NCBI GenBank assembly: GCA_041677365.1
Contig: JBAYQC010000001.1
Location: 1 to 34,460, forward strand
DNA length: 34,460 bases
Reading direction: 5' to 3'
Source of the DNA: Candidatus Izemoplasmatales bacterium
GTDB taxonomy: Bacteria > Bacillota_I > Bacilli_A > Izemoplasmatales > Hujiaoplasmataceae
Part shown: piece after piece, positions 4,572 through 24,832 of the stretch
Numbering within the stretch: the stretch's first letter is position 1
Layout of the letters: each line of letters begins with the position of its first letter
The notes under the pieces: generated by a model
The model's database searches: none
What the model saw: only the letters and a program-made list of their open reading frames with translations
What the model was told of the DNA's origin: nothing
Position numbers and translations under genes: made by a program

Positions 4572-5377
4572 TGAAAATGGAGATTAATAATTATTTCGCT
4601 CCAAAAAAGGTAGAAGAAGCTTACGAACTCTTCATCGACAATGAAGCTAACCGATTTATTGCCGGAGGAGCATGGATGAAATTGAGTACCAAAAAAGTCA
4701 ATGACTTAATCTCGCTTGATCGATTAAGATTGGATTATATTAAAGAGGAAAATGCTTTTTTTGAAATCGGAGCGATGACTTCTCTTAGAGCAATAGAAAC
4801 CAATCAACAAATCAAGAGTTATTACTCGGGGATTTTGAATCAAGCAGTAAGTAAAATCATGGGAGTTTCTGTTAGAAATCTCGCTACTATAGGCGGATCG
4901 GTTATGGGGAAATTTGCTTTTTCTGATTTGCTTGGAGTATTGTTGGTCTTAGATGCAAGACTACATTTTTATAAATTAGGAGAGATTTCGATCCAAGAGT
5001 TTTTAGCGATGAAAAGACCACCTCGAGATTTACTGGTAAAAATTAGAATACCTAAGGTTTCTGGAAAAGGATATTTTAAGAAAGTCAGTAAAACACATTT
5101 GGACTTTTCAGTTATCAATCTAGCGATATTTAAAGGCGAAAATATTAAGATAGCTGTTGGATCAAGACCTTTAGCAGCTGAAATTGCTAGTAAAGCTAGT
5201 AATTTCTTAAGTTCACAATCATCAATTACTGATGAAATAATTGAAAATGCTTGTGATTTAGTAATTGAAGAATTGAAACTGAGTTCTAATTTAAGAGGTT
5301 CTAAGGAATATCGTGAGCTATTGGTTAGAACCTATCTAAAGAGAGGATTAGGGCAGGTGATGAACGATGAAAATTAA
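4568..5377 (+). CDS. Xanthine dehydrogenase family, FAD-binding (CoxM/XdhB-type) subunit, module 1
   Basis: 269 aa. IAGGAWMK and ATIGGSV blocks of the PCMH-type FAD-binding fold, with a CO-dehydrogenase flavoprotein C-terminal-like tail. The start overlaps the mocA stop (TTG 4568 / ATG 4571). Confidence 0.75.
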   Translation: MMKMEINNYFAPKKVEEAYELFIDNEANRFIAGGAWMKLSTKKVNDLISLDRLRLDYIKEENAFFEIGAMTSLRAIETNQQIKSYYSGILNQAVSKIMGVSVRNLATIGGSVMGKFAFSDLLGVLLVLDARLHFYKLGEISIQEFLAMKRPPRDLLVKIRIPKVSGKGYFKKVSKTHLDFSVINLAIFKGENIKIAVGSRPLAAEIASKASNFLSSQSSITDEIIENACDLVIEELKLSSNLRGSKEYRELLVRTYLKRGLGQVMNDEN

Positions 5378-5819
5378 TCTTAATATCAATGGAGAGAAAA
5401 AAACATTTTTGATTGAGAATAATGAATATTTGTTAGATGTTCTAAGAAGAAATAATTATAAAAGTGTTAGACGCGGTTGCGATAATACAAGTTGTGGTGT
5501 TTGCACAGTGTTATTCGATGGAAAGCCAGTTCCTTCTTGTTCTTTGTTAGCAGTCAGATGTAAAGATCACGAGATTACAACTGTTGAGGGGATTGAGAAA
5601 GAAGCGGAGAAGTTAGCTAAACATTTTGGAGATTTAGGAGCGGATCAATGTGGATATTGCAATCCTTCTATGGCGCTAACTGTCTATGCATTAAAACAGG
5701 AAAATAAAAATGCTTCATTGGAAGAAATTAAAGAATATTTAGTTGGTAATCTTTGTCGCTGCACTGGTTATATATCTCAACATGAAGCTATAAAAAGATA
5801 TTTAGGTGATGAATCATGA
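5367..5819 (+). CDS. Xanthine dehydrogenase family, 2x[2Fe-2S] small subunit, module 1
   Basis: 150 aa. Motifs CDNTSCGVCTV...C and QCGYCNPSM...CRCTGY are present. 11-nt overlap with the upstream gene. Confidence 0.9.
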   Translation: MKINLNINGEKKTFLIENNEYLLDVLRRNNYKSVRRGCDNTSCGVCTVLFDGKPVPSCSLLAVRCKDHEITTVEGIEKEAEKLAKHFGDLGADQCGYCNPSMALTVYALKQENKNASLEEIKEYLVGNLCRCTGYISQHEAIKRYLGDES

Positions 5820-8122
5820 AAGTAGTAAATAATAAAACTCATTCAATTGATGGATTGGGAATAATGAAAGGTAGAAAAGCTTTTACCGATGATTTTTCCG
5901 AAAATGATTCTTTGATTATTAAAGTATTAAGATCTCCACATGCTTATGCGAAGATTAAAACTATTAAGGATGAAAAAGCTTTAGCTCTTGAAGGCATCGA
6001 AATGGTTTTAACCCATAAAGACTTTAAACGTATTTCATTTACGCGTGCTGGGCAAGGATATCCAGAACCATCACCACATGACAAGTTTGTTTTAGATGAA
6101 TATGTCCGTTATGTGGGCGATGAAGTTTTAGCTGTTGTTGGCAAGAGTGAAGATATCTGTAATAAAGCTTTAGGTTTAATCGAAGTTGAGTATGAAGTTT
6201 TAGATCCAGTTTTAGATTTTGAAAAAGCTATTGATAATAAAGTTGTAATTCATCCTGAAAAAGAAGCAAAAGAAATGTTTCCTATTGGTTTTGAACCTTT
6301 AAGAAATATTGCGGCAAGCTATAAAATGGAAGTTGGGGATGTGGAAAAGAGTTTAAAAGAATGCGATTATGTAATCAGAGAAACTTTTTACACACAAGCG
6401 CAAGCGCATGTAATGCTTGAGCCACATACTGTAAATGCGAGAATGGATTATCAAAATCGGATTTTAATTTACAGTTCCACACAAACACCTTTTCATATCA
6501 GGAGAATTATATCTCAAGGTTTAGAGATTCCATTATCTAAAATTAGAGTTATTAAACCAAGAGTTGGGGGCGGATTCGGTGGGAAACAAGCAATCCATGG
6601 AGAAATGCTTGTTGCTTATGTAACTAATAAAACTGGTAAGCCCTCTAAACTTACTTATACCCGTAAAGAAGTTTTTGAATCTTCTTATACTCGTCATCCT
6701 ATGCGATTAGAAATCGCTTTAGGAGCGCTTAAATCTGGTAAGTTAAAAGCAATTGATTGCAAAGTTTTAAGTGACACTGGAGCTTATGGAGAACATGCTT
6801 TAACGGTCTTCATGGTTACGGGATCAAAAGTTTTACCATTATATAATAAAGTTGATTCAGTTAGATTTGGCGGAGATGTGGTTTATACTAATCACACGCC
6901 TGCTGGAGCTTTTAGAGGATATGGAGCAATCCAAGGTAACTTTGCTCTTGAATCAGCCGTCGATATTCTTTGTAAAGAGATGAAAATCGATCCAATTAAG
7001 TTTAGACAAATGAACATGATGAAAGAAAAAGAAACTTCACCGATATTTGAAATTATGGGTGAGGGAACTACAGGTACAGCAATGATTATGGAAACCTGTA
7101 AGTTAGAAGAATGCGTGGAAAAAGGTCTTGAGTTGATTGATTGGAAAAACAAATACCCTAAAAAAATTATGGATAATAAAATTCGTTCAGTGGGTATGGC
7201 TTTAGCGATGCAAGGTAGTGGTATTCCTTATATTGATATGGGAGCGGCAACGATAAAATTAAATGATGATGGATTTTACAATCTAATGGTTGGAGCTACC
7301 GAAATCGGTCAGGGTAGCGATACAGTTTTAACCCAAATAGCAGCCGAAGAGCTAATGACTAGTGTTGATAAGGTAGTAATCTACTCTTCAGATACCGATT
7401 TAACTCCATTCGATGTTGGAGCATATGCTTCATCGACAACTTATGTATCAGGTAATGCGGTATTTAAAGCCGCGAAAAAACTTAAAAATTCAATGATTGA
7501 AGAAGCTGCAAGAATCTTCGAAACCAAGATTGAAGATATTGATTTCGATGGTTGTAAATTTAAATGTATCAGTAAAAATGAAGAACTTTCATTAGTTGAT
7601 TTTTCAAATCAAATTACTTATTCACATGAACAGAAACAACTTCAAGAAACAGCTTCATATGTTGGACATAAATCTCCACCGCCTTTCATGGCTGGTTTCG
7701 TTGAAATTGAAATTGATAAAGACACATATGAAATTGAAATATTAAATTATGTTTCAGTGGTAGACTGCGGCACAACAATTAATCCAATGCTCGCTAAAGG
7801 TCAAGTTGATGGTGCTATCGTTCAGGGATTGGGTATGGCTATGTTTGAAGATGTGATTTATTCTGCAAAAGGAAAACTCATCTCAAGTGATATGCTAAAT
7901 TATAAAATTCCTACTCGTTTAGACATTAAAAATTTAACAACAGTTTTTGTTGATTCATATGAAGAAAGTGGTCCGTTTGGAGCTAAATCAGTTGGGGAAA
8001 TTGGAATTGACACTCCACCAGCTGCACTTGCAAATGCTGTTTATAACGCTCTTGGCGTAAGAATTAAAGATTTACCGATTACACCAGAAAAAATATATGA
8101 AGAATTGAGGAAAAAATCATGA
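5816..8122 (+). CDS. Xanthine dehydrogenase family, molybdopterin-binding large subunit, module 1
   Basis: 768 aa. Blocks VGGGFGGKQ (about 6561-6590), AFRGYG (about 6907-6925) and C-terminal GAKSVGE. ATGA start/stop overlap with the FeS subunit. Confidence 0.9.
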   Translation: MKVVNNKTHSIDGLGIMKGRKAFTDDFSENDSLIIKVLRSPHAYAKIKTIKDEKALALEGIEMVLTHKDFKRISFTRAGQGYPEPSPHDKFVLDEYVRYVGDEVLAVVGKSEDICNKALGLIEVEYEVLDPVLDFEKAIDNKVVIHPEKEAKEMFPIGFEPLRNIAASYKMEVGDVEKSLKECDYVIRETFYTQAQAHVMLEPHTVNARMDYQNRILIYSSTQTPFHIRRIISQGLEIPLSKIRVIKPRVGGGFGGKQAIHGEMLVAYVTNKTGKPSKLTYTRKEVFESSYTRHPMRLEIALGALKSGKLKAIDCKVLSDTGAYGEHALTVFMVTGSKVLPLYNKVDSVRFGGDVVYTNHTPAGAFRGYGAIQGNFALESAVDILCKEMKIDPIKFRQMNMMKEKETSPIFEIMGEGTTGTAMIMETCKLEECVEKGLELIDWKNKYPKKIMDNKIRSVGMALAMQGSGIPYIDMGAATIKLNDDGFYNLMVGATEIGQGSDTVLTQIAAEELMTSVDKVVIYSSDTDLTPFDVGAYASSTTYVSGNAVFKAAKKLKNSMIEEAARIFETKIEDIDFDGCKFKCISKNEELSLVDFSNQITYSHEQKQLQETASYVGHKSPPPFMAGFVEIEIDKDTYEIEILNYVSVVDCGTTINPMLAKGQVDGAIVQGLGMAMFEDVIYSAKGKLISSDMLNYKIPTRLDIKNLTTVFVDSYEESGPFGAKSVGEIGIDTPPAALANAVYNALGVRIKDLPITPEKIYEELRKKS

Positions 8123-8757
8123 AAAATAATCGTTTAGAATTTGTAGTTAAAATTGTTTTCTTTGGGGCTTTATGGGGGTTAGTAGAAGCAACCCTTGGAT
8201 ATGCTTTGCATATATTACCAGCACTGATTGCTGGTAGTATCATGTTTCCAATTGTAATGGTGATACTATACCAAGCCTATAAAAGTTTAGACTCAAGAAA
8301 AGCAATTTTATTTGTTGGCTTTGTAGCAATCTTAATTAAATCATCAAATTTATTATTACCGTTCTTATTTCCGGCAAAAACTATCAATCCGATGATTGCG
8401 ATGTTTATTCAAAGCCTGCTTGCATTTGCGTTTATTCCTAACCTTTCAAGTTCGAGTATAGTTAAGAAAATTGCGATTTTAACCGGTATTAGCCTTACTT
8501 GGCGTTTAGGGATGATTGGTTATTATGCAATTAACTACTCTTTGACTAGTTTCTTAGACTTTAGAATTGCTAATTTTGATTCAGCACTTGCTTTTGTAGT
8601 TTTTGAAGGCTTGATTTCAGGTGCTTTTGCAATAATTCTAGTCATTGGCTATGAAAAATTTAAGCTTTTGGATCGAGTAAAAACCCTAAGAATTAATCCG
8701 ATTCTCTCAACCGTAGCTTTAGCCTTAGCCTTATTCTTCACTCTTTATAAGTTTTGA
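8119..8757 (+). CDS. Uncharacterised 6-7 TM membrane protein embedded in the Mo-hydroxylase/maturation block
   Basis: 212 aa and almost entirely hydrophobic helices. ATGA overlap with the Mo subunit stop. No family recognised. The size and topology resemble small substrate-capture/transport proteins, but this is only an impression. Confidence 0.6.
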   Translation: MKNNRLEFVVKIVFFGALWGLVEATLGYALHILPALIAGSIMFPIVMVILYQAYKSLDSRKAILFVGFVAILIKSSNLLLPFLFPAKTINPMIAMFIQSLLAFAFIPNLSSSSIVKKIAILTGISLTWRLGMIGYYAINYSLTSFLDFRIANFDSALAFVVFEGLISGAFAIILVIGYEKFKLLDRVKTLRINPILSTVALALALFFTLYKF

Positions 8758-8768
8758 AAGGATAGTCA

Positions 8769-9602
8769 ATGGATATTTTTAAATTAATCGCTGAATATAA
8801 ACAAAAAAACATTACGATGATGGCGATTACGGCTGTAAAAAAAGACGGAGCTGGACCTGTAGAAGTAGGAAAAAAACTCTTGTTATTTCCTGATGGGAAA
8901 AGTATTGGTACTGTCGGAGGCGGAGCGATTGAATACTACGCACAAAAAAAAGGTTTAGAACTTTTAGAAAAAAAGCAAAGTTTGCTTGAAACCTATGTTC
9001 TCGATGAAGGTAAGGTTCTTCCTGAGACTAAAACATTACCAATGGTTTGTGGAGGAGTTGTTACGCTTTTTTATGAGTATATTGGCCCAAAAGCAACTAT
9101 TTATATCTTTGGTGGCGGTCATGTTGGTCAAGCTTTGGTTAATGTTTTAAAAACTATGAATTACCACATTACCGTTATTGATGAAAGAAAGCCAATAATC
9201 GAGAAGTTTAACAACGCTGATGTCTTGGTAAATGAAGCTTTTGTTAGTTTTATCGAAAAAGACACAATTAAAGATGGTGATTATATCATCGTTTGTACCC
9301 CTAGTCATAAGTACGACTATCATGTAATAAATAAGATTCTTGAAAAAAAGCTGAAGCCAGCTTATTTAGGTATGCTTTGCTCACCGGATAAAATCAAAGG
9401 TTATTTGAAATCCACTTATGAAAAATTTGGAAAAGATATCGATTTAAGTTTCTTTTACTCACCGATTGGGTTAGATACCGGAGGTATGACTCCGGAGGAA
9501 ATTGCAATCTCAATAACTGCAGAAATTTTAGCTATCACTAACAAAAAAAGCGGTCATAAACATATGCGGGAGACCTTAGATGATCAAGATCATTACTGGT
9601 AA
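8769..9602 (+). CDS. xdhC: XdhC/CoxI-family Mo-hydroxylase maturation (Moco insertion) protein
   Basis: 277 aa. N-terminal XdhC_CoxI-like region (VGTVGGGAIEY) followed by a Rossmann-like domain (IYIFGGGHVGQAL ... VIDER). Confidence 0.8.
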   Translation: MDIFKLIAEYKQKNITMMAITAVKKDGAGPVEVGKKLLLFPDGKSIGTVGGGAIEYYAQKKGLELLEKKQSLLETYVLDEGKVLPETKTLPMVCGGVVTLFYEYIGPKATIYIFGGGHVGQALVNVLKTMNYHITVIDERKPIIEKFNNADVLVNEAFVSFIEKDTIKDGDYIIVCTPSHKYDYHVINKILEKKLKPAYLGMLCSPDKIKGYLKSTYEKFGKDIDLSFFYSPIGLDTGGMTPEEIAISITAEILAITNKKSGHKHMRETLDDQDHYW

Positions 9603-10047
9603 GATAAACTCATATAAAACCACTAGACTAATTGATTATTACCAAAATTATAAACAAGGTGACGGCTTCGCTAGTTTAAAAGTTATGCATAATGATATAG
9701 TTAAGGAATATAATCTTTTACATTTATCAAAGAATAAAAAAATTCCTTATATTAAAAGAAATAATCAAGATATTACCGAACCCGTTATTTATGAAATTGG
9801 ACCATATCGATTTTTAAAGAGTGCTTTTGATTATGTAGAAACTGAAATTGAGAAGATGATTGAAAAAAGAGTTGAACCAATATTTTTGGATGAGATTTCA
9901 TTATTAGAACTTAAAAATCAAGGTTTTCATCAGATTCTTATTAAATTATTAGCCGCTGATTTAGATTTGATTTTAGTTATCAGAAATGATCTTCTAATTG
10001 ACGTATTGGCTAAGTATCAGTTTAAGGATTATAAAATTATTAAGTAG
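9580..10047 (+). CDS. Small P-loop NTPase-like protein (THEP1/DUF2478/MobB-like) with degenerate Walker A
   Basis: 155 aa. The Walker A-like GKINSYKT (9598-9621) has Tyr in place of the second Gly of GxxxxGK[ST]. The Walker B-like IFLDEISLLEL resembles the hhhhDEIGxMEL of THEP1-type NTPases. 23-nt overlap with xdhC. Confidence 0.5.
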   Translation: MIKIITGKINSYKTTRLIDYYQNYKQGDGFASLKVMHNDIVKEYNLLHLSKNKKIPYIKRNNQDITEPVIYEIGPYRFLKSAFDYVETEIEKMIEKRVEPIFLDEISLLELKNQGFHQILIKLLAADLDLILVIRNDLLIDVLAKYQFKDYKIIK

Positions 10048-10059
10048 GAAGTGAGATAA

Positions 10060-11349
10060 TTGTTCGATAAAAGAATAATAAATGGTCAAGTTTTTTACGA
10101 CGATAAGTTTCATAAAACTAACCTTTATATCAAAGGCGAAAAAATCGCCAAAATTTCTTCAGAAAATTTTAATGCTAAAGAAACGATTGACGTAAAAAAT
10201 TCCCTTGTTTTACCTGGTTTAATTGACCCCCATGTTCACTTTGATCTCGACTTGGGAAAAATTCACTCGCGTGATGATTTTTATTATGGCAGTTTAGGAG
10301 CTTGTTTTGGTGGTGTAACCACTATCATTGATTTTTTAGATCCAGTTGATAAATGGGAAGATTTAGAAGCTGCTTATAAATCAAGGTTAAAAGCAGCTGA
10401 AACATCAGTAGTAGATTATCTTTTTCACGCAACAATAAAAAATCCTAAAGGGAGTTTAGAAGATTTTGTCTTAAAAATGAAAGAGTTAGGCATTAACTCG
10501 CTAAAACTTTTTACTACCTATTCTGATTCGAACCGAAGAACATATGATGAACAAATTATCGAACTTTTAAAATTATCTGAAAAATATAATTTCTTATTAT
10601 TAGCGCATATCGAACATGACGATTATATTGATTTAAATCCTCACTTTAAATACCAACAATTACTAAAATCACGTCCAACTCAAGCAGAGACTAAAGAAGC
10701 TTTAAAACTAGCTGGTTATGTTGAAAAATATGGTGGTTATCTCTATATGGTTCACTTAAGCAGTGGAGAAACGCTTAGGGCTTTGAAAAGAGAGTTCCCA
10801 ATGCTTTTAAACAAACGCTTTTTCATTGAGAGCTGTCCCCATTATTTTCTTTTCACCAACGATTTTTTAGAACGGTGCGATGGATTTTTATATACTTTAG
10901 CTCCACCTTTAAGAACAAGAAAAGAAAGAACGCTATTAAAGGATAGTTTTTCTGATATTTTCACTATCGGAACTGATCATTGTGCTTTTAATAGAAGTGA
11001 TAAAGATCATAAATATTTAAAAGATGTTCCCTTAGGTATCGGTAGTATCGAGTATTCATTCGATGTTTTGTTTGAACTCTTTAAACATAAAGCTATTGAT
11101 AAAATGAGCAAAAACATCGCGTGTCTTTATCCTTCTTTAATAGACCAAGGAGAAATTAAGGTCGGTAATAAAGCTAATATTTTTGTCTATGAACTCTATG
11201 ATAATTTCATTGATTTTCATCATGGAAAAACCGATTACAACCTCTATGAAAATTTCAAACGTTCAGGAAGAGTTATGCATACATTATTAAGAGGTGAGTT
11301 TATTGTTAAAAATCAAAAATATGTCGGTCATGGAGGAAAGAAACTATGA
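10060..11349 (+). CDS. hyuA: Cyclic amidohydrolase, D-hydantoinase/dihydropyrimidinase family (HyuA-like)
   Basis: 429 aa, TTG start. PGLIDPHVHFDLD..DDFYYGSLGACFGGVTTIIDF parallels E. coli HyuA (PGGVDVHTHFNID..DDFFTGTRAAACGGTTTIIDH). The carbamylatable Lys (SLKLFTTY), the His ligands (AHIEHDD, MVHLSS) and the Asp (GTDHCAF) are all present. Confidence 0.8.
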   Translation: MFDKRIINGQVFYDDKFHKTNLYIKGEKIAKISSENFNAKETIDVKNSLVLPGLIDPHVHFDLDLGKIHSRDDFYYGSLGACFGGVTTIIDFLDPVDKWEDLEAAYKSRLKAAETSVVDYLFHATIKNPKGSLEDFVLKMKELGINSLKLFTTYSDSNRRTYDEQIIELLKLSEKYNFLLLAHIEHDDYIDLNPHFKYQQLLKSRPTQAETKEALKLAGYVEKYGGYLYMVHLSSGETLRALKREFPMLLNKRFFIESCPHYFLFTNDFLERCDGFLYTLAPPLRTRKERTLLKDSFSDIFTIGTDHCAFNRSDKDHKYLKDVPLGIGSIEYSFDVLFELFKHKAIDKMSKNIACLYPSLIDQGEIKVGNKANIFVYELYDNFIDFHHGKTDYNLYENFKRSGRVMHTLLRGEFIVKNQKYVGHGGKKL

Positions 11350-12677
11350 AAGAAAGAAAAGTAAAAACATTTATTAATGCGAGAATTTACGACTATGATA
11401 AATACATTGAAAATGGCTTTATATCTTTTGATGAAAAAATCATTTCGATTGGTGATATGCAAGATTTCAAAGAAACTCAAGTAGAAGTAATTGATTTGAA
11501 AAATCAAATGGTCATTCCCAGTTTCATCAGTGGACATACCCACCTATATTCAAGTTTTGCTAGAGGAATGGCAAATGAGTTTAATCCGCAAAATTTCTTG
11601 GAAATACTTGAACAACTTTGGTGGAAACTAGATAATTTTCTTGATAAAAAGATGATTCATTTTTCCGCTTTAGTCGGCGCTATAGATCAACTGAAACACG
11701 GAACTACTACATTGATTGATCACCACGCTTCAAAAGTGATTTCAGGAAGTTTAGAACAAATAAAGTCGGCATTAAATGATAAGCTAAATTTGCGTTCAGT
11801 TTTAGCTTTTGAGACAAGTGACAGGTTTTTGATTTCTGAGGCAATCTCTGAAAATAGCGATTTTATTAAGAATAATCAATCTGAATTTATCAGTGGTTTA
11901 TTCGGTGCTCACGCTTCATTATCTTTAAGTGATCAAAGTTTAAAAATGATCTCGAGAAACTTAAATGGCGCAGGAATTCATATTCATGTCGCTGAAAGCT
12001 TAATGGATGAAGAAGATTCACTTAAGAAATATAATCTAAGAGTCGTAGAGCGGTTAGAGAAATTTAACCTTCTTAATGAAAAGTCTCTCTTAGTTCACTG
12101 TACACATATTAACGATAAAGAAATGGATATCATTAAGAAGTATGGTTGTCGAGTAGCGGTAAATGTTACTTCAAATTTAAATAACGCTGTAGGGATTACC
12201 AATATTAAAAAAATGCTCAATAAGGGAATTAAAGTAATTAGCGGTAATGATGGATTAATCCAATCACAACCGATGGAGTATTTAAATATTTACTATTTAT
12301 CACATCTTAAGACGCTTTCGCCAACAAATTTCTCTTTAGATGATATCTTAACGATTATTAATAACACTTATGAATATGCCAATCTAATGTTAAAGACAAA
12401 TCTCGGTAAATTCAAAGTAGGTGCAGAAGCAGATTTTTTAGTTACTGACTATCAGAATTTTACACCGATAACTAAAGAAAATATCTTTTCTCATCTGTTC
12501 TTTGGAGTTTATCCTGGATTTAGAGCTAAAGATGTCTTTGTTTCCGGAAAACAAGTAATCGAAAATTATCAATTAATCAATGATTATGATTCATTATATA
12601 AAGAAGCTAAATCCCAAGCACAAAAATTATGGGATATAGTTGAAAAGGAAGGTGGAAAAATTGAATTTAACTACTAA
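11346..12677 (+). CDS. ssnA: SsnA-family aminohydrolase (ATZ/TRZ chlorohydrolase-guanine deaminase superfamily)
   Basis: 443 aa. SGHTHLYSSFARGMA...LEQLWWKLD...TTTLIDHHAS parallels E. coli SsnA (CSHNHFYSGLSRGIMA...LKNLWWRLD...CTSVIDHHAS). Metal ligands HIHVAES, LVHCTH and GNDG are present. ATGA overlap with hyuA. Confidence 0.85.
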   Translation: MKERKVKTFINARIYDYDKYIENGFISFDEKIISIGDMQDFKETQVEVIDLKNQMVIPSFISGHTHLYSSFARGMANEFNPQNFLEILEQLWWKLDNFLDKKMIHFSALVGAIDQLKHGTTTLIDHHASKVISGSLEQIKSALNDKLNLRSVLAFETSDRFLISEAISENSDFIKNNQSEFISGLFGAHASLSLSDQSLKMISRNLNGAGIHIHVAESLMDEEDSLKKYNLRVVERLEKFNLLNEKSLLVHCTHINDKEMDIIKKYGCRVAVNVTSNLNNAVGITNIKKMLNKGIKVISGNDGLIQSQPMEYLNIYYLSHLKTLSPTNFSLDDILTIINNTYEYANLMLKTNLGKFKVGAEADFLVTDYQNFTPITKENIFSHLFFGVYPGFRAKDVFVSGKQVIENYQLINDYDSLYKEAKSQAQKLWDIVEKEGGKIEFNY

Positions 12678-13743
12678 ATTTGACGGATTAGAATTTAAGA
12701 ACCCTTTGATGCCAGCTGCAGGACCACTTAACGGTGATTATGAAAAATTAGAATTCTTGGTGGAACAAGACTTGGGCGGGATTGTAACTAAAACCATATC
12801 TAAAGAATTACCAAAAATACCAAAGCCTTGTATTTATGGTGATAAGACTTTTATTATGAATTCAGAACTATGGAGTGAACATAGTTATGAAACTTGGATA
12901 AATGATTTTTTACCAAAGTTTATGAAGATTAAAGATAGACCTTTGATTGTAAGTCTCGGTTATTCTAAGGAAGATATGGAATTTTTAGTTCCTAAACTTG
13001 ATAAATTCGCTGATGCTTTTGAAATATCTACTCATTACGTTGGAACGAATTTAGAAGTAATCAAAGATACTGTTAAAGCTATAAGAGCTAATACAAAAAA
13101 ACCGATTTACATGAAGATATCTCCACATATTCCTAATCCTGAAGGTTTTGCTAGAGCAATAAAAGAAGCTGGAGCTTCTGGAGTAGTGGCTATTAATTCT
13201 TTAGGACCAACAATGAAAATCGATTTAAAAACTAAAGCGATTATCTATAGCAATGATTCTGGTTTTGTCTGGACTAGTGGTCCAGCGATAAAACCGATTG
13301 CTTTAGCAACTGTTTATAAGATCAAACAAGCAGAGCCGACACTTACGGTAATTGGAGTTGGAGGAATTAAAACTGCCGATGATGTTTTGGAATTTTTATT
13401 GGCAGGTGCGTCTGCTGTCCAAATGTTATCAGCTGCTTTACTAACCGGTAAAGATTTATACGCAAAAATAATCAAGGATTTACCAAAAGCCTTAGAAAAA
13501 TATGGATTTAATAGTATTGAAGAAGTAATTAATCATGGATTAAAAAAGGAAGTTGTGTATAAAAGAAGTCTTCCAGTCTTAGACAAAGACAAATGTATTG
13601 ATTGTATGCTATGTCAAAAAATTTGTCCCTATTTTGCAATTGACTATCCGGGGGTAATTACTTTTAATCCGGATAAATGCTTTGAATGTGGACTATGTAT
13701 TGCCAAATGTCCGACTGGGGCAATAAGTTTTAATGAAAGGTGA
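12640..13743 (+). CDS. DHOD/DPD(PreA)-fold FMN flavoprotein with C-terminal 2x[4Fe-4S] ferredoxin domain; non-canonical active-site loop
   Basis: 367 aa. The DHOD class 1-like blocks FKNPLMPAAG, IVTKT, VVAINS, AIKPIAL and IGVGGI are present. The C-terminus carries CIDCMLCQKICP and CFECGLCIAKCP. The likely true start is the TTG at 12661 (MNLTTKF...), after GGAAGGTGG. Confidence 0.8.
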   Translation: MKRKVEKLNLTTKFDGLEFKNPLMPAAGPLNGDYEKLEFLVEQDLGGIVTKTISKELPKIPKPCIYGDKTFIMNSELWSEHSYETWINDFLPKFMKIKDRPLIVSLGYSKEDMEFLVPKLDKFADAFEISTHYVGTNLEVIKDTVKAIRANTKKPIYMKISPHIPNPEGFARAIKEAGASGVVAINSLGPTMKIDLKTKAIIYSNDSGFVWTSGPAIKPIALATVYKIKQAEPTLTVIGVGGIKTADDVLEFLLAGASAVQMLSAALLTGKDLYAKIIKDLPKALEKYGFNSIEEVINHGLKKEVVYKRSLPVLDKDKCIDCMLCQKICPYFAIDYPGVITFNPDKCFECGLCIAKCPTGAISFNER

Positions 13744-15833
13744 TTGATATGAGAGATATTTCGCGCTCAATAAATAAAGTTGATAACGATGAAAAGATGA
13801 GTGGTAGCGCTAAATATACCGCTGATTTAAGATATGAAAATATGCAATACGCTTATACCTTAAGGTCAAATATAGCTAAGGGAGAGATTGTTAGTATTGA
13901 TTACCCTAAACTTCCTGAAGGTTATTTTATCGTTGATCACTCAGATATTCCTGGTAAAAATATTGTCAAAGTTATCTATGATGACATGCCAATTTTCACT
14001 ACAGGAAAAATTAGTTATTTATACGAACCAATCGCTCTTATTGTTGGACCAGATAAAGCCGTGTTGAAAAAACTTATCGAAGAAGTTAAGGTTGAATATA
14101 AAATAGAAGAACCAATCTTTGCTTGGGAAGATAGTGTAATCCACTATGAGTTTTCTAAGGGCGAAGGTAAACTTGCTTTCGATAAACTTCAAACAGTTGA
14201 TTTTAATTACGAGACTTCTTATCAAGAACAAGCCTATATTGAACCACAAGGATTTGTCGCTTATATGGAAGGTGAAAAAACCACTTTGATTGGTTCAATC
14301 CAATGTCCATACTATGTGAAAAACGCTGTTATTCAAGCCTTAGGCGTTAGAGAAGATCTTGTAAGAGTTATCCAAGCTAATGTCGGCGGAGCTTTTGGTG
14401 GTAAGGAAGAGTTTCCTTCACTTTTAGCTTGTCAATTGGCAGTAGCTGTAAATAAAGTTAATAAACCAATCCAATTAATTTTTGAAAGAGAAGAAGATAT
14501 CTTAGTAACAACTAAAAGACATCCAGCAAAAATTAGTTTTAGAGCCGCAATTAAAGCAGGAAAAATTTATGCTTTAAGTGTAAAGGCGGGAATTGATGGT
14601 GGAGCGACTATCGGACTTAGCGGAGTAGTTTTATCCAGAGCACTAATCGCTTGTACTGGAGCTTATACAATTGATAATCTCGATGTCAGTGGTGATGTTT
14701 ATCGAACAAACACTGTACCTAATGGAGCTTTTCGAGGGTTTGGAGCGCCACAGATGTTTTTTGCGATTGATATGTTTGTTGAACACGTAGCTAAAACTTT
14801 AGGCGTTGATCCTTTAGAATTTAGGATAAAGCATTTGGCTAAACAAAATGATTTTACTTCAACAATGGGGATATTCAGAGATCCAATTTTAATGCCAGAA
14901 ATGATTGATAGGGCATTAAAGGACTCAAATTATAAAGCGAAACATAAACTTTATGAAAACGATGGAAGTTACCGTGGGATTGGAATGAGTTTGTTTTTCC
15001 ATGGTTGTGGTTTCACCGGTTCTGGTGAACAAAATATCATTAAAGCTAAAGTCAGACTTAAAAAGAGCGGCGACTTAGTAGAAATCTTAATCGCAGCTGT
15101 AGATATGGGTCAAGGTGTAAAAACTAGTTTTAGAAAATTAGTTGCACATATTTTACAGATTCCGATTGAACGGGTTATCTTTAATAATCCTGATACCGAT
15201 TTTGTGCCTGATTCAGGGCCAACAGTAGCTTCTAGAACAATGATGATTGTTGGCGGGTTAGTCGCAAGAGCTGCTAAAGAAGTAAAATCTCGTTTTTCAG
15301 AAAGTGAATTTATCGTTGAAAGACAATATGAACAACCTGAGTATATTAAGTATGATGAAGAAAACTTTAAAGGTGACGCTTATCCAGCTTATTCATGGGG
15401 AGTAAATGTTGTTGAAGTTGAAGTTGACAAATATACCTATCAAGTAAAAGTTAAGAAAGCTTGGTCATTCTATGATGTTGGTAAGGCTATTGACGAAAGA
15501 ATTGTTATTGGTCAAGCTGATGGAGGTTTAGCTCAAGGCTTAGCATATGGATATTTAGAGGTAATGCGTCATGAGTTAGGTTATATCAAGCAAAAGAACT
15601 TTACAGATTACATTATCCCTACGGCAATGGATATGCCTCCGATGGAAACTCATCTTTATGATAACCCATATGCCTTTGGTCCTTATGGAGCAAAGGGTGT
15701 CGGAGAACTATCTTTAATCGGTGGAGCTCCAGCAGTTGCTAAAGCTATAGAAAATGCAATTGGGAGAAAAGTTTTCAAAATACCAGTGACCTCAGAATAT
15801 ATTATGGAGTTGATAAATAATGGCGAAAATTAA
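13740..15833 (+). CDS. Xanthine dehydrogenase family, molybdopterin-binding large subunit, module 2 (canonical XDH catalytic triad)
   Basis: 697 aa. Blocks VGGAFGGKEE (about 14381-14416), AFRGFGAPQ (about 14725-14750) and C-terminal GAKGVGE. The likely start is the ATG at 13749, after GAAAGGTG. Confidence 0.9.
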   Translation: MIDMRDISRSINKVDNDEKMSGSAKYTADLRYENMQYAYTLRSNIAKGEIVSIDYPKLPEGYFIVDHSDIPGKNIVKVIYDDMPIFTTGKISYLYEPIALIVGPDKAVLKKLIEEVKVEYKIEEPIFAWEDSVIHYEFSKGEGKLAFDKLQTVDFNYETSYQEQAYIEPQGFVAYMEGEKTTLIGSIQCPYYVKNAVIQALGVREDLVRVIQANVGGAFGGKEEFPSLLACQLAVAVNKVNKPIQLIFEREEDILVTTKRHPAKISFRAAIKAGKIYALSVKAGIDGGATIGLSGVVLSRALIACTGAYTIDNLDVSGDVYRTNTVPNGAFRGFGAPQMFFAIDMFVEHVAKTLGVDPLEFRIKHLAKQNDFTSTMGIFRDPILMPEMIDRALKDSNYKAKHKLYENDGSYRGIGMSLFFHGCGFTGSGEQNIIKAKVRLKKSGDLVEILIAAVDMGQGVKTSFRKLVAHILQIPIERVIFNNPDTDFVPDSGPTVASRTMMIVGGLVARAAKEVKSRFSESEFIVERQYEQPEYIKYDEENFKGDAYPAYSWGVNVVEVEVDKYTYQVKVKKAWSFYDVGKAIDERIVIGQADGGLAQGLAYGYLEVMRHELGYIKQKNFTDYIIPTAMDMPPMETHLYDNPYAFGPYGAKGVGELSLIGGAPAVAKAIENAIGRKVFKIPVTSEYIMELINNGEN

Positions 15834-16293
15834 ATTTATTTTAAATAACCAGTCACAAGAAATTGATACGGATTTAAACCGAAGACTATTAGATGTTCTT
15901 AGAAATGACTTTAATCTTACTGGGCCAAAAGAAGGTTGTGGCGAAGGTGAGTGTGGTGCTTGTGCGGTATTACTTAATGGCAAAATTGTCAATTCTTGTT
16001 CAGTGCCTTTAGCAAATGTAGTAAGTAAAGAAATAATGACAATTGAAGGCTTTTCGCAAACAAAAAGATATGAAATAATCAAGGAAGCTTTTGCGGAAAT
16101 GGGTGGTGTACAATGTGGTTTTTGTACTCCAGGAATGATTATTGCAACTGAGAGTTTATTGAGACATAATCCGCATCCAACAATTGAAGAAATAAAAATT
16201 GGTTTATCAGGAAATCTTTGTCGTTGTACCGGGTACAACTTAATTGTTAAAGCGATTCAACAAGCAGCTAAAAAAGGTGATGGACTATGGTAG
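15820..16293 (+). CDS. Xanthine dehydrogenase family, 2x[2Fe-2S] small subunit, module 2
   Basis: 157 aa. Motifs GCGEGECGACAV...C and QCGFCTPGM...CRCTGY are present. 14-nt overlap with the upstream gene. Confidence 0.9.
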   Translation: MAKIKFILNNQSQEIDTDLNRRLLDVLRNDFNLTGPKEGCGEGECGACAVLLNGKIVNSCSVPLANVVSKEIMTIEGFSQTKRYEIIKEAFAEMGGVQCGFCTPGMIIATESLLRHNPHPTIEEIKIGLSGNLCRCTGYNLIVKAIQQAAKKGDGLW

Positions 16294-17126
16294 AAGCATA
16301 TGTGCCTAAAAACTTAAAAGCAGCTTTAGAAATGCTTCATGAGAAAAGTTTAAGGATAGTTGCGGGTGGAACAGATATGTTGATTCAAAACCGTAATCGA
16401 TCTGGACTACCAATTAATTTTAAAAGTGATATATTATATGTTTTCGATTTAGAAGAGTTAAAAAGAATCGAAGAAGATAGTGAATTTTTATATATCGGAG
16501 CTAGTTGTTCTTTAGAGAGTATCTTAGAAAACAAACTCACACCCGAACTTTTAAAGATGACGATTTTAGAAATGGCATCACCAGCAATTAGAAATACCGG
16601 AACTTTAGCTGGTAATATTGCTAATGCATCACCAGCAGGGGATGGGATTGTCACTTTAGTATTGGAAGACGCGTTATTAGAAATTCAATCAATAAATCAC
16701 CTGCGAAGAGAAAAAGTTCAGGATTTTATTCAAGGAGTTAGAAAGATTAACTTAAATTCTGATGAGTTAATAACTAAAATTATCATTCCTAAAGTTACAT
16801 TTGATAAAGCTTATTTTAAAAAGGTTGGTCCAAGACTTAGCGACGCTATTTCTAAAGTTGCTTTTGCAGGCGCAATTAAATTTGAAGACACGATTGTTAA
16901 AGACTTTCGGATTTGTCTTGGAGCTGTAAATATCAAAATGGTTCGCGATTCAGCAATTGAAAAAAAATATATAGGAAAAACTAAAAAGGAATTGCAAGGT
17001 TTAATTTCCCAAATTTTAAATGATTATTCGCCTTTAATCAAACCAATTGATGATCAGCGTTCAAATAAAGAATATCGCAAACAAGTCAGTTTGAATTTGA
17101 TTCAAGAATTTATCGAAAATTTATAG
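16287..17126 (+). CDS. Xanthine dehydrogenase family, FAD-binding subunit, module 2
   Basis: 279 aa. Blocks VAGGTDMLIQ and GTLAGNIANASPAGD are present, and the C-terminal DQRSNKEYRK is typical of the CO-DH flavoprotein C-domain. Confidence 0.85.
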   Translation: MVEAYVPKNLKAALEMLHEKSLRIVAGGTDMLIQNRNRSGLPINFKSDILYVFDLEELKRIEEDSEFLYIGASCSLESILENKLTPELLKMTILEMASPAIRNTGTLAGNIANASPAGDGIVTLVLEDALLEIQSINHLRREKVQDFIQGVRKINLNSDELITKIIIPKVTFDKAYFKKVGPRLSDAISKVAFAGAIKFEDTIVKDFRICLGAVNIKMVRDSAIEKKYIGKTKKELQGLISQILNDYSPLIKPIDDQRSNKEYRKQVSLNLIQEFIENL

Positions 17127-17146
17127 GGAATTTAGGAGGTATCTAC

Positions 17147-18868
17147 TTGAACAAAACTAAGTTACTAAAAGTTGCTAAAGGTGAGATAAAAGCTGATATC
17201 GTGTTGAAAAATGCTCAGTTAATCAATGTCTTTACCAAAGATATTGAGAGTGGAAATTTAGCTATCTCTGATGGCATAATTATTGGGGTTGGTAACTACA
17301 AAGGCGAAATAGAATATGATTATAGTGGGTACTTTTTAGCACCTGGTTTTATCGATGGACATGTCCATATAGAATCTTCAATGTTAATCCCACCTTATTA
17401 CGCTCAAGCTGTTTTACCAAGAGGAACTACTTCAGTAGTCGCAGATTGTCATGAAATAGCAAATGTTTTAGGTATTAAAGGTATTGATTTTATGTTGGAA
17501 GCTAGTGAAAACATTCCCTTAGATGTTTTTATGATGATACCTTCTTGTGTTCCTTCAACTAAATATGAAACTTCAGGGGCTGTACTTAAAGCTCAGGATT
17601 TAAAAAAATATGTTGATAATGACAGAGTCTATGGTCTAGGAGAAATGATGGATTACCCTGGAGCAATCAATGGTGAAAAGGAAGTACTAAAGAAGATTGA
17701 TGCTTTTGCCCATAAAACAATTGATGGTCATGCACCATTAATCATGGAAAAAGACCTTAATGCTTATGTGTTATCCGGTGTTAAAACCGATCATGAATGC
17801 ACGGTTCCAGAAGAACTTATTGAAAAGGTTAAACGAGGTATGTACATTCATTTAAGAGAAGGTTCACAGACGAAAAATATAGTTGATTTATTACCGGGTG
17901 TAAACCCTAGTATCTATCAAAGAATATTGTTTTGTTCGGATGATTTACATCCATCAGATATAAAGAAAACTGGGCATATCGACAACAATATCAATATAGC
18001 TATTAAAAGTGGTATACCGCCAGTTGAAGCGATATCAATGGCAACGATTAATATTGCTAATTGCTATAGGCTTAAAGATGTTGGAGCTATCGCTCCAGGA
18101 TATAAAGCCGATTTAGTAGCTTTTAAAGATATTAATAATATTGAAATTATTGATGTCTTTAAAGCCGGTAATTTAGTCGTTAAAAATAAAAAGACTTGCT
18201 TTAAAGTAAAAGAAGTAGATACTATGAAAGTAGAAGATACGGTTAAGATAAATTTGGCTAGTGTAAATCTTGCTTTTAATTTAAAATCTAATTACATAAA
18301 AGTAATCGGTTTAATTAAAAATAATGTCACTACAAAAATGTTAGAAGAGACTGTAAAGTTAAATCAGGGTCGGTTCCTACCAAAAGAAAATCCTGGTTTA
18401 CTAAAACTAGTTGTTTTAGAAAGACATAAACTAAGTGGCAATATCGGAAAAGCTATTGTGAGAGGCTATGGTTTGAAAAATGGAGCCTTAGCATTGACTA
18501 TCGCTCATGACAGTCATAATTTAATCTGCATCGGTGATAATAACCCTGATATGCTCAAAGCGATCTTTACAATAAAAGACATCGGCGGAGGAATTGTGCT
18601 GGTAAGTGAAGGAAAAGTAATTGAAACTCTACCTTTAGAAGTAGGGGGATTGATGTCTAAAAAACCTCAAGAGTTTGTGATTGAAAGATTAGAAAGTCTA
18701 GAGAGCAATCTAAAAAAACTTGGAGTGAATCATGAAATTGAAGATCCGATTCTACAACTAGCATTTTTATCATTGCCAGTAATTCCCGAATTAAAGTTGA
18801 CTGATATGGGTCTATTTGATGTTAGAAAATTTAAAATTACATCAATTGAGGTAGGTGAAGATTCTTGA
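17147..18868 (+). CDS. ade: Adenine deaminase (amidohydrolase superfamily, AdeC-type)
   Basis: 573 aa, the same size as B. subtilis AdeC. PGFIDGHVHIESSML is present, and the two-domain length and the overall block order fit the family. Confidence 0.85.
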   Translation: MNKTKLLKVAKGEIKADIVLKNAQLINVFTKDIESGNLAISDGIIIGVGNYKGEIEYDYSGYFLAPGFIDGHVHIESSMLIPPYYAQAVLPRGTTSVVADCHEIANVLGIKGIDFMLEASENIPLDVFMMIPSCVPSTKYETSGAVLKAQDLKKYVDNDRVYGLGEMMDYPGAINGEKEVLKKIDAFAHKTIDGHAPLIMEKDLNAYVLSGVKTDHECTVPEELIEKVKRGMYIHLREGSQTKNIVDLLPGVNPSIYQRILFCSDDLHPSDIKKTGHIDNNINIAIKSGIPPVEAISMATINIANCYRLKDVGAIAPGYKADLVAFKDINNIEIIDVFKAGNLVVKNKKTCFKVKEVDTMKVEDTVKINLASVNLAFNLKSNYIKVIGLIKNNVTTKMLEETVKLNQGRFLPKENPGLLKLVVLERHKLSGNIGKAIVRGYGLKNGALALTIAHDSHNLICIGDNNPDMLKAIFTIKDIGGGIVLVSEGKVIETLPLEVGGLMSKKPQEFVIERLESLESNLKKLGVNHEIEDPILQLAFLSLPVIPELKLTDMGLFDVRKFKITSIEVGEDS

Positions 18869-20112
18869 GTTATAAATTAGCATATCGCTGCACCATATGC
18901 AATAAGAAATATCCAGTTGATAAGGAACTATATACCTGCCCCGAATGCGGAGAAACTGGAATTTTAGATATTGAATATGATTATAAAAAAATCGCTGAAG
19001 TATTCACTAAAGCAAAACTTAGTTCGTCAAAAGAATACTCTTTATGGCGTTATCTTCCCCTTTTACCAGTTGAAGAAAGTTTCACAAAGAATTCATTAAG
19101 GGTTGGCTGGACTCCGCTTTATAAATTCGCTGATTTAGCATTGAAGTATAATACTAAAGCTATATATATTAAAGATGATGGACAAAATCCTACTCAATCT
19201 TTAAAGGATAGAGCAAGCGTAGTCGCTTGCGTAAAAGCGTTGGAGTTAAATCAAAAAGTCATCTCCTGTTCCTCGACTGGAAATGCCGCTTCCTCTTTAG
19301 CGGGCAATGCCGCCAAAATGGGATTGAAAACAGTGATCTTTGTTCCGGAGCGAGCCCCAATTGGAAAATTAACCCAGATTCAAGCTTTTGGGTCTCAATT
19401 AATAAAAGTAAAAGGTGACTATAAAGCTGCTTATGAGATGTCAAAGGCGGCGATAAACCACTTCGGATTTTATAATCGTAACGCTGCTATTAACCCTAAT
19501 CTAATCGAGGGAAAGAAAACTGTAGCTTTAGAAATTGCTGAACAACTTAATTTTAAGCCGACTGAGTGGATAGTTGTTTCAGTTGGAGACGGCTGCACAA
19601 TTGGTGGAGTATACAAAGGGTTTTATGACCTTTTTAATTTGAATTTTATCAAAAAAATCCCTAAAATTTTAGGTGTACAAAGCAGTGGTTGTAACCCCTT
19701 TTATCAGGCATATAAAAATAATTTAGATTATTTAGAAGAAACAGATGAGCTTACAGTCGCCGACAGTATTTCTGTAGGCATACCGAGAAACCCTGTTAAG
19801 GGATTAAATGCTGTAAAAAAATCCCAAGGAGCTTTTATTGAGGTAAGCGATGAAGAGATTTTAAGCGCAATCAAAGAATTAGCTTCACAAACGGGAATTT
19901 TTGCTGAACCTGCAGCAGCAGCTAGTTTTGCTGGATTTAAGAAAGCAAGACGTAAAGCCATAATTAGTAGCGAAGAAGAAGTAACAATTATCATAACCGG
20001 TAACGGACTTAAAGACCCTAATAACGCTAGAAAAGTTCTTGAAGAACCTTTAGCAGTTGAACCAGTTTTTGAAAAAATTAAACATATTTTAAATATAGAA
20101 AGAAGGACATAA
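18865..20112 (+). CDS. Threonine-synthase-family fold-type II PLP enzyme with N-terminal Cys4 zinc ribbon
   Basis: 415 aa. CTIC-x16-CPEC ribbon (from 18889), LWRYLPLLPV, PLP-lysine block PTQSLKDRAS, and SSTGNAASSLA. TTG start overlapping the ade stop. Confidence 0.75.
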   Translation: MSYKLAYRCTICNKKYPVDKELYTCPECGETGILDIEYDYKKIAEVFTKAKLSSSKEYSLWRYLPLLPVEESFTKNSLRVGWTPLYKFADLALKYNTKAIYIKDDGQNPTQSLKDRASVVACVKALELNQKVISCSSTGNAASSLAGNAAKMGLKTVIFVPERAPIGKLTQIQAFGSQLIKVKGDYKAAYEMSKAAINHFGFYNRNAAINPNLIEGKKTVALEIAEQLNFKPTEWIVVSVGDGCTIGGVYKGFYDLFNLNFIKKIPKILGVQSSGCNPFYQAYKNNLDYLEETDELTVADSISVGIPRNPVKGLNAVKKSQGAFIEVSDEEILSAIKELASQTGIFAEPAAAASFAGFKKARRKAIISSEEEVTIIITGNGLKDPNNARKVLEEPLAVEPVFEKIKHILNIERRT

Positions 20113-20115
20113 TTT

Positions 20116-21468: not shown

Positions 21469-21478
21469 AGGTGAAATT

Positions 21479-24217: not shown

Positions 24218-24241
24218 AAACGCTGAATTTCAGCGTTTTTT
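24216..24241. terminator. Bidirectional rho-independent terminator shared by the purine operon (+) and guaD (-)
   Basis: AAAAA-CGCTGA-ATT-TCAGCG-TTTTTT lies between the convergent stops at 24217 (+) and 24240 (-). Confidence 0.75.
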
Positions 24242-24719: not shown

Positions 24720-24832
24720 ATCGATAATCTCCTCTTTTCCATGTCAAGTAAACTAATTATAAAAGATAGAGTTTTTTTTGTAAACAAGTAGGGAAGAATT
24801 AAGCCTAAAGAATTAAAAATAATTCGTATATA

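Follow-up and report, generated by a model that had tools for sequence, protein, structure and literature searches.

A UacX-type flavoprotein without the catalytic cysteine loop, encoded in a purine cluster of an Izemoplasmatales bacterium, is a candidate reductase of 2,8-dioxopurine

The 34,460-nucleotide stretch of DNA analysed here (hereafter the window; positions 1 to 34,460 of contig JBAYQC010000001.1, assembly GCA_041677365.1, Candidatus Izemoplasmatales bacterium) carries a long co-directional operon that runs from mocA to a ygeW/OTC-like gene and includes a gene, uacX, for a flavoprotein of the dihydroorotate dehydrogenase (DHOD)/dihydropyrimidine dehydrogenase (DPD) fold (Table 1). 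Judged by its sequence, the encoded protein is an orthologue of C. difficile UacX (CdUacX) and an ordinary member of that named family, and we consider it a likely candidate for the reductive dearomatisation of 2,8-dioxopurine (yanthine/isoxanthine) in the anaerobic purine/uric-acid clusters that have no YgfK. This functional assignment is not new, as it was already anticipated by Li et al. (2025); what is new here is the anatomy of the active site, its conservation and a possible motif common to YgfK.

The gene probably does not start at 12640: its true start is more likely TTG 12661 (360 residues) or GTG 12652 (363 residues). The former gives a protein beginning with MNLTT, as in the 360-residue homologues, and is preceded by a Shine-Dalgarno-like GGAAGGTG; the latter is the start used by database entry P0002. 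At its 5' end, uacX overlaps ssnA, and at its 3' end the stop codon shares nucleotides with the GTG start of the gene for the Mo subunit of a molybdenum (Mo) hydroxylase (GTGA, 13740-13743). In Pfam, the DHO_dh family matches residues 10-285 (E 4.6e-39), and residues 312-364 contain two 4Fe-4S ferredoxin motifs, all 8 iron-sulfur (Fe-S) cysteines of which are conserved among orthologues; apart from this barrel and the C-terminal pair of [4Fe-4S] motifs, no domain for flavin adenine dinucleotide (FAD) or reduced nicotinamide adenine dinucleotide (phosphate) (NAD(P)H) was found in the protein. The motifs picked out by eye in the initial annotation are all present in the translation (FKNPLMPAAG, residues 19-28; IVTKT, 48-52; VVAINS, 182-187; AIKPIAL, 216-222; IGVGGI, 238-243), as are the two C-terminal CxxCxxCxxxCP motifs.

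Table 1. Features of the uacX locus in the window, and the part of E. coli YgfK compared with UacX
Feature	Position	Strand	Basis or remark
mocA, first Mo-hydroxylase module (FAD, FeS, Mo), unknown 212-residue protein, xdhC, NTPase-like gene	4014..10047	+	
hyuA-like hydantoinase/dihydropyrimidinase	10060..11349	+	TIGR02033, 211 bits versus cut-off 393
ssnA (aminohydrolase)	11346..12677	+	375.8 bits versus cut-off 444; proposed partner hydrolysing the reduced ring
uacX-type gene	12640..13743	+	Open reading frame as given, 367 codons; Pfam DHO_dh + Fer4; 40% identical to CdUacX
Flavin mononucleotide (FMN)-binding DHOD/DPD-type TIM barrel (residues 10-300)	12667..13539	+	Pfam, AlphaFold2, Foldseek
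K51 (VTKT), equivalent of the DHOD/DPD FMN/substrate Lys	12790..12792	+	Present in 78/78 loci covering the position
N74-S-E-L-W-S-E80, counterpart of DPD N609-I-E-L-I-S-E	12859..12879	+	Alignment, conservation
E128-I-S-T-H-Y133, end of beta4 and start of truncated loop	13021..13038	+	Multiple sequence alignment, profile alignment, AlphaFold2, conservation
K159 (YMKISP), second conserved Lys of the family	13114..13116	+	Invariant
N186-S187 (AINS), equivalent of DHODA Asn193 / DPD Asn736-Thr737	13195..13200	+	Invariant
First [4Fe-4S] motif, C319-x2-C322-x2-C325-x3-C329-P	13594..13629	+	Pfam Fer4, conservation
Second [4Fe-4S] motif, C347-x2-C350-x2-C353-x3-C357-P	13678..13713	+	Pfam Fer4, conservation
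Second Mo-hydroxylase module (Mo, 2Fe-2S, FAD subunits)	13740..17126	+	
Adenine deaminase, ThrC-like and CysK-like pyridoxal phosphate (PLP) enzymes, ygeY, ygeW/OTC-like carbamoyltransferase	17147..23679	+	Downstream part of the purine operon
E. coli K-12 ygfK, N-terminal domain (residues 1-440)	L082:8061-9380		Aligns weakly with UacX

The window protein belongs to neither of the curated families closest to it, since it scores 185.3 and 184.8 bits with the NCBIfam class 1 DHOD models (cut-offs 269 and 270, respectively) and 149.8 bits with the PreA model (cut-off 335). Its AlphaFold2 model, built on 54 orthologues, has a mean predicted local distance difference test score (pLDDT) of 93.1 and a predicted template modelling score (pTM) of 0.90. 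When compared with the PDB by Foldseek, the model matched pig DPD best (TM-score on the query 0.85-0.89, E about 1e-27), apparently through the FMN and C-terminal Fe-S parts of that enzyme, and also matched L. lactis DHODB (TM-score on the target 0.88, root-mean-square deviation 2.0 over 305 columns). As modelled, the protein is built like the PreA half of DPD. Pfam, the model and Foldseek thus bear out the initial annotation of the gene as encoding a DHOD/DPD-fold flavoprotein with a ferredoxin tail.

In the classical enzymes, a cysteine carried by a mobile N-x-S-C-P-[NH] loop (Cys130 of L. lactis DHODA, Cys671 of pig DPD) acts as the general acid/base. In the window protein, this loop is replaced by the short, fixed sequence E-I-S-T-H-Y: in the model, strand beta4 spans residues 126-130 (A-F-E-I-S) and is joined to helix alpha4 (residues 138-149) by a 7-residue loop (T-H-Y-V-G-T-N), as opposed to a spacing between the beta4 Asn and the helix of 17 residues in DHODB and up to 20 in DPD, and the loop is therefore 9-12 residues shorter. 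No invariant Cys was found in the barrel across 80 related loci (the number returned by a scan of one genome per species). The prediction that the catalytic Cys loop is lacking is therefore borne out on both counts. C64 (in K-P-C-I, a sequence also found in YgfK) was considered as a relocated catalytic Cys and rejected as not essential, being replaced by N, S or A in 9/78 loci, some of them linked to SsnA.

The residue that faces the lost cysteine differs between alignments. HMMER alignments against PDB sequences place S130-T131 opposite S-C, which requires a 2-residue gap within the strand; with the DPD C671S entry, the alignment is shifted by one residue and S130 lies opposite the Cys position. 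By contrast, the beta4 strand is ungapped both in a MAFFT alignment of 122 diverse family representatives and in an hhalign profile-profile alignment with the classical Cys-loop proteins (E 5.5e-83). In the ungapped register, E128 is the Glu of 'E-L-N', which is universally conserved, S130 corresponds to Asn127 of DHODA (Asn668 of DPD), T131 to Ile/Leu and H132 to Ser129/670, and the Cys is deleted or replaced by Y133. The modelled strand, which runs through S130, agrees with this register, and P0195 (E-I-S-I-S-A-P), whose register is unambiguous, shows the same replacement of Asn by Ser. The ungapped register appears to be the best supported, and T131 is probably not the equivalent of the Cys. 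Indeed, the T131 pairing proposed by HMMER was down-weighted because the multiple alignment, the modelled strand and hhalign all put this residue opposite Ile/Leu and because it is variable (T/C/S) amid invariant neighbours. A MAFFT alignment with E. coli PreA alone, which sets STH opposite T-S-H of PreA in yet another register, was judged opportunistic. As the HMMER register differs from that of the multiple and hhalign alignments, the equivalence to the Cys is assigned tentatively, and a Ser (S130) or a Thr may occupy the catalytic spot. The initial annotation, which had set E-I-S-T-H-Y at 13021-13038 against the N-x-S-C-P-[NH] loop, was thus exact as to position and right that the Cys is gone, but its pairing is probably shifted by two residues and T131 is likely not the counterpart of the Cys.

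E128, S130, H132 and Y133 are invariant across the related loci, and at position 131 there is a Thr in 69 loci, a Cys in 8 and a Ser in 2, a pattern which, as far as sequences tell, is typical of a small semi-buried residue and not of a catalytic one. Conservation of the T-H pair in orthologues therefore holds for H132 and fails for T131. Note that one of the two patterns used in the scan contained STHY, so that motif frequencies among the 80 loci are biased; the motif was recounted in two word-based homologue sets gathered without it, and STHY was present in 120/120 and 118/120 sequences, respectively. The variant E-V-S-C-H-Y, with a Cys at the position of T131, is found with the same operon order in L028-L033, L037 and L080 (metagenome-assembled genomes of the rumen Erysipelotrichaceae/Bacilli type), and S-S-H-Y occurs in L059 and L079.

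The rest of the FMN and substrate set of DHOD and DPD (K51, N74, K159, N186 and S187) is invariant among orthologues. N74, E76, W78 and E80 are found in 79/79 loci covering them, Trp78 standing in for Ile613 of DPD, and a motif of the N-x-E-L-W-S-E type is present in 239/240 homologues. As for the Asn residues that bind orotate (Asn67, Asn127, Asn132 and Asn193 of DHODA), N74 and N186 are kept, Asn127 is replaced by Ser130 and the region of Asn132 is deleted. The replacement of the beta4 Asn by Ser, the lost loop Asn and Trp78 would fit a pocket remodelled to receive a bicyclic purine as opposed to a pyrimidine.

The reductive urate pathway was established by two studies in 2025: XdhD/XdhAC reduces urate to 2,8-dioxopurine, and YgfK (DOPOR) was shown experimentally to reduce 2,8-dioxopurine in a reaction coupled to SsnA (these studies include Li et al. 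2025, PMC12507026). C. difficile has no YgfK and has instead a PF01180 protein, named UacX (Q181U4), which Li et al. (2025, Life Metab 4:loaf031) proposed to be a reduced-ferredoxin-dependent substitute for YgfK, by likeness to the clostridial enzyme PydAc. PydAc of Clostridium chromiireducens is a ferredoxin-dependent dihydropyrimidine dehydrogenase (Biosci Rep 2020, PMC7332683). The window protein is 40% identical to CdUacX (P0527) over the full length (E 1e-92), and CdUacX carries ELSTHY and NTELWSE. The C. difficile locus reads YgeX (PALP)-YgeY (M20)-UacY (Amidohydro_3)-SsnA (Amidohydro_1)-permease-UacX-HyuA-XdhD, in agreement with the description by Li et al. We found no use of the name UacX beyond that study in the literature consulted.

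In the window, uacX lies between ssnA and the second Mo-hydroxylase module, as initially annotated, and neither YgfK nor a PreT/GltD-type NAD(P)H module was found there; PyrK and pyr genes are likewise absent from the vicinity of uacX. The ygeW/OTC-like gene is followed by a convergent deaminase gene. Neither a diaminopropionate ammonia-lyase (YgeX) nor a carbamate kinase (YqeA) could be recognised in the cluster at 17147-23679, and the genes for the ThrC-like and CysK-like PLP enzymes co-occur with UacX in most related loci. The sites returned by a promoter/terminator scan of 9500-24800 were no more than expected by chance. The nearest database relatives of the window protein are labelled Candidatus Izemoplasmatales/Mycoplasmatota, and a locus combining xanthine dehydrogenase (XDH) and deaminase genes has already been noted in Izemoplasmatales (Wasmund et al. 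2021). Upstream, the first Mo subunit gene and xdhC are separated by a 212-residue open reading frame (8119-8757) for which neither Pfam nor NCBIfam gave a match; homologues of it occupy the same place in many Izemoplasmatales-type loci. A Firmicute-type fructose-1,6-bisphosphatase (PF06874) at 1891-3844 is split into open reading frames of 420 and 204 residues that match profile positions 1-410 and 442-638, respectively, which points to a frameshift or a sequencing error.

The window proteins were then mapped onto the related loci by tblastn. SsnA was detected in 66/80 loci; among the 58 that are well flanked (at least 3 kb on both sides), it lies within 10 kb of uacX in 53, is adjacent in 44 and is immediately upstream on the same strand in 42. 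The hosts comprise Izemoplasmatales, rumen Erysipelotrichaceae-type bins, Clostridium, Paraclostridium, Thermotogota, Spirochaetota, Synergistota, Acidobacteriota, Chloroflexota, Actinomycetota, Bipolaricaulota and archaeal bins, and the ssnA-uacX linkage itself spans Bacillota, Thermotogota, Spirochaetota, Synergistota, Acidobacteriota, Chloroflexota and archaeal bins. The absence of YgfK, pointed out for the window in the initial annotation, extends to all 80 related loci, none of which has a PreT/GltD-type module either, save for one GltD-like gene in L063. In four Thermotogota loci (L044, L047, L049 and L043), a uacX homologue (46-49% identical) is followed by a ThrC-like PLP gene and SsnA was not detected (two of these loci have 10-kb flanks and two are on short contigs); they may represent a different pathway arrangement. 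Loci of the uacX type are also found on contigs binned as a Methanomethylophilaceae archaeon (L051, 65% identical to the window protein), Bacteroidaceae (L024) and Thermoplasmata (L076), either through mis-binning or through horizontal gene transfer.

YgfK turned out to bear a faint resemblance to UacX. Pfam returned no match, DHO_dh included, on YgfK residues 1-440, and BLASTP of UacX against E. coli YgfK matched only the Fe-S motif, with nothing significant in the barrel. Nevertheless, hhalign aligned the YgfK N-terminal domain with UacX (E 7e-5 to 7e-4, probability 26-63%), and in tblastn this domain matched the uacX genes of two loci (E 4-5e-4). In these weak alignments, P-A-A-G-P and K-P-C-I are found in both proteins, N-S-E-L-W-S-E of UacX faces N-T-E-W-S-T-E of YgfK, E-I-S-T-H-Y faces T-L-S-T-M-H (S226-T227) and K159 faces K254, and each of these residues of YgfK is conserved without exception among 33 enterobacterial sequences of that protein. 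The N-terminal domain of YgfK contains invariant N-T-E-W-S-T-E and T-L-S-T-M-H-G-C-P-P sequences. In the AlphaFold2 model of YgfK, a strand (222-226) ending at S226 is followed by a 6-residue loop, a helix (233-247) and a strand (250-255), the same order of elements as in the UacX model (strand 126-130, loop, helix 138-149, strand 156-159). The alignments suggest that residues 1-440 of YgfK form a divergent DHOD/DPD-type FMN barrel and, together with the models, that YgfK may share the Cys-less beta4 'S-T' arrangement with UacX.

When 1.84 billion cluster representatives were searched exhaustively with HMMER, 7,622 matches were obtained at E <= 1e-3, of which 114 at E <= 1e-30. In a maximum-likelihood tree of 117 full-length representatives, a short-loop group of 69 members stands apart from the classical Cys-loop proteins (support 99/91), and all the bearers of S-[T/C/S]-H-Y fall into a single 33-member clade (support 99/88). 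The motif is not strictly monophyletic, as this clade also holds 17 members with altered motifs, P0122, P0124 and P0125 among them. On this phylogeny, UacX forms a single branch within a large and so far uncharacterised set of DHOD-ferredoxin fusions. The 69-member group (representatives P0122-P0271) combines the DHOD fold and two [4Fe-4S] motifs with even shorter beta4 loops (e.g. E-L-V-S-Y), and keeps N-x-E-x-W-S-[ED].

Taken as a 2,8-dioxopurine reductase, UacX would work as follows. Low-potential electrons, from reduced ferredoxin or possibly from the neighbouring Mo-hydroxylase modules, would pass through the two C-terminal [4Fe-4S] clusters to FMN, and the reduced flavin (FMNH-) would give a hydride to C6 of the purine ring of 2,8-dioxopurine, by analogy with C6 of uracil in DPD. 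The proton would be supplied by the rigid, invariant S130/H132/Y133/E128 set located where beta4 ends or, through tautomerisation, by solvent, and not by a mobile Cys loop. The unstable dihydro product would be pulled forward by SsnA, which would open the ring to a ureidomethyl-hydantoin for HyuA, the YgeW-like protein and YgeY. Starting from hypoxanthine, such a route would be redox-neutral, with 4 electrons released up to urate and 4 used by dehydroxylation and ring reduction, and this may explain the presence of the two Mo modules that flank uacX. The suggestion made in the initial annotation that FMN and Fe-S electron input are retained fits the conserved cofactor residues, and its suggestion that the substrate is probably neither dihydroorotate nor uracil is supported by the scores, far below the PyrD and PreA cut-offs, and by the absence of the Cys loop. 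Its further suggestion, a reductive step on a purine ring in place of YgfK, is supported by the identical role proposed for CdUacX (Li et al. 2025), the level of identity with it and the shared cluster type.

Several observations weigh against this assignment. The substrate of UacX is deduced from gene context only, and reduced ferredoxin is a putative electron donor. The active site was assigned residue by residue from alignments and secondary structure, not from coordinates. SsnA is not nearby in 5/58 well-flanked loci, and the nearest cluster representatives, P0122, P0124 and P0125 (44-48% identical), lack the S-T-H motif, so that function may vary within the clade. The homology between YgfK and UacX is statistically weak (see the hhalign probabilities above) and the YgfK model is of moderate quality (pLDDT 73.7). 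Finally, CdUacX was purified and a methyl viologen assay described (Li et al. 2025, PMC12507026), but no result for this assay was found in the main text or in one supplementary file of that study; this could mean that the outcome was negative.

Among the other explanations, the one to which we grant some, if limited, likelihood is that UacX reduces another heterocycle derived from purines: xanthine, urate, 6,8-dioxopurine or a later unsaturated intermediate. The window cluster is a pathway variant whose downstream part is unlike those of E. coli and C. difficile. It has two unusual PLP enzymes, lacks DpaL and includes a pair of XDH-type modules, and the specificity of UacX has so far been put forward by analogy. 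However, C. difficile shares the SsnA-UacX-HyuA core with the window, the active-site residues are invariant across all the cluster variants, and the motifs common to YgfK argue for the same substrate. It is improbable that the protein is instead a ferredoxin-dependent dihydropyrimidine dehydrogenase (PydAc/PreA-like) acting on uracil or thymine, with the hydantoinase serving as dihydropyrimidinase and YgeY as carbamoyl-amino-acid hydrolase. DPD is the best structural match, the N-x-E-L-x-S-E motif of the window protein is DPD-like, the adjacent hydantoinase matches the dihydropyrimidinase model TIGR02033 (211 bits), and ferredoxin-dependent PydA enzymes are known (PMC7332683). Yet the hydantoinase falls below the cut-off of that model (393), just as the window protein does with PreA (150 versus 335); the window protein has neither the catalytic Cys nor the loop Asn, and a Ser stands in place of the beta4 Asn; PydAc has two ferredoxin domains versus one in the window protein; and it is SsnA that is conserved as the partner, in a neighbourhood of Mo-hydroxylases and purine deaminases.

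Two further possibilities are remoter still. UacX might be an electron-transfer or accessory subunit of the second Mo-hydroxylase, acting as its FMN/Fe-S entry module, as could be imagined from the stop/start overlap with the Mo subunit gene and from the position of uacX ahead of the second Mo module in Izemoplasmatales and Erysipelotrichaceae-type loci. We deem this very improbable, since in Clostridium, Paraclostridium, C. difficile and Thermotogota uacX is away from that module and stays with SsnA, and since the residues on the substrate side (N74, E76, W78, S130, H132, Y133 and N186) are invariant, as befits a catalytic pocket. Hardly any credit can be given to a biosynthetic class 1 DHOD (PyrD) with a fused ferredoxin, even though class 1B DHODs are the best NCBIfam and PDB sequence matches and relatives are labelled 'dihydroorotate dehydrogenase' in databases: the score (185 bits) is well short of 269/270, the protein lacks the catalytic Cys as well as two of the four Asn that bind orotate, and its gene is part of a catabolic operon and has neither PyrK nor pyr genes in its vicinity.

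A broader idea can be entertained, which we put forward tentatively and would not call probable: UacX and the FMN domain of YgfK might form a Cys-less mechanistic subclass of the DHOD/DPD superfamily, in which the mobile Cys loop has given way to a rigid beta4 end (E-x-S-[T/C/S]-H-Y / T-L-S-T-M-H). The proton would be provided by the Tyr or the His, or none would be needed (hydride attack on the C6=N1 imine of the purine), and UacX would be one branch of short-loop fusions (69/117 representatives) acting as ferredoxin-dependent reductases of non-pyrimidine N-heterocycles.

The breakdown of urate and purines by anaerobic gut and sediment bacteria was resolved only in 2025. A variant of it that does without YgfK occurs in C. 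difficile, C. perfringens-type clostridia, rumen Erysipelotrichaceae and marine Izemoplasmatales and depends on UacX, a putative reductase. The present analysis shows that the UacX family is widespread and tightly linked to SsnA, and that the catalytic Cys, a substrate-binding Asn and the mobile loop of DPD and DHOD are all gone in this family. It also singles out residues for mutation (E128, S130, T131, H132, Y133 and W78) and a testable motif common to YgfK. Lastly, it extends the reductive purine pathway to Izemoplasmatales, marine-sediment degraders of DNA whose purine locus had no known downstream route (Wasmund et al. 2021).

Compared with enzymes of known function, the closest solved sequence is the PyrD subunit of L. 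lactis DHODB (PDB 1EP1 and 5UE9; E 1.9e-34, about 30% identity), a biosynthetic enzyme which, unlike the window protein, has the catalytic loop N-I-S-C-P-N and a PyrK partner and no ferredoxin tail. Pig DPD (PDB 1GTH and 7M31) and E. coli PreA resemble the window protein in having a C-terminal 2x[4Fe-4S] domain behind the FMN barrel, together with the conserved Lys, an Asn609/Glu611-type motif and equivalents of Asn736. However, Cys671, the mobile loop 670-683 and Asn668 of DPD are not kept (the Asn is Ser130 and the loop is 10-12 residues shorter), and the PreT or N-terminal FAD/NADPH partner of PreA and DPD has no counterpart in the window. YgfK/DOPOR of E. coli and C. sporogenes lacks the S-C-P-[NH] loop, as does UacX, and catalyses the reaction, coupled to SsnA, that is proposed for UacX. 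It differs by its size (1032 residues), its extra Fe-S sites and its GltD/PreT-like FAD-NAD(P)H module, by virtue of which YgfK uses NAD(P)H; UacX, with only two [4Fe-4S] clusters, would require an external low-potential donor. PydAc, too, is a DPD-type FMN barrel fused to bacterial ferredoxin domains and devoid of an NAD(P)H module, but it has two such domains (four clusters), acts on uracil and is encoded beside PydB/PydC instead of SsnA. CdUacX comes from a host other than an Izemoplasmatales-type bacterium, and the gene order differs: in the window, uacX is directly between ssnA and a three-subunit Mo-hydroxylase with no permease after ssnA, a YgeW-like carbamoyltransferase is found versus UacY, and two PLP enzymes versus YgeX. 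The two proteins nonetheless have in common a PF01180 barrel with a C-terminal 2x[4Fe-4S] domain and no FAD/NAD(P)H domain, the E-[ILV]-S-T-H-Y and N-x-E-L-W-S-E motifs, and surroundings made up of ssnA, hyuA, ygeY and Mo-hydroxylase genes from which YgfK is absent.

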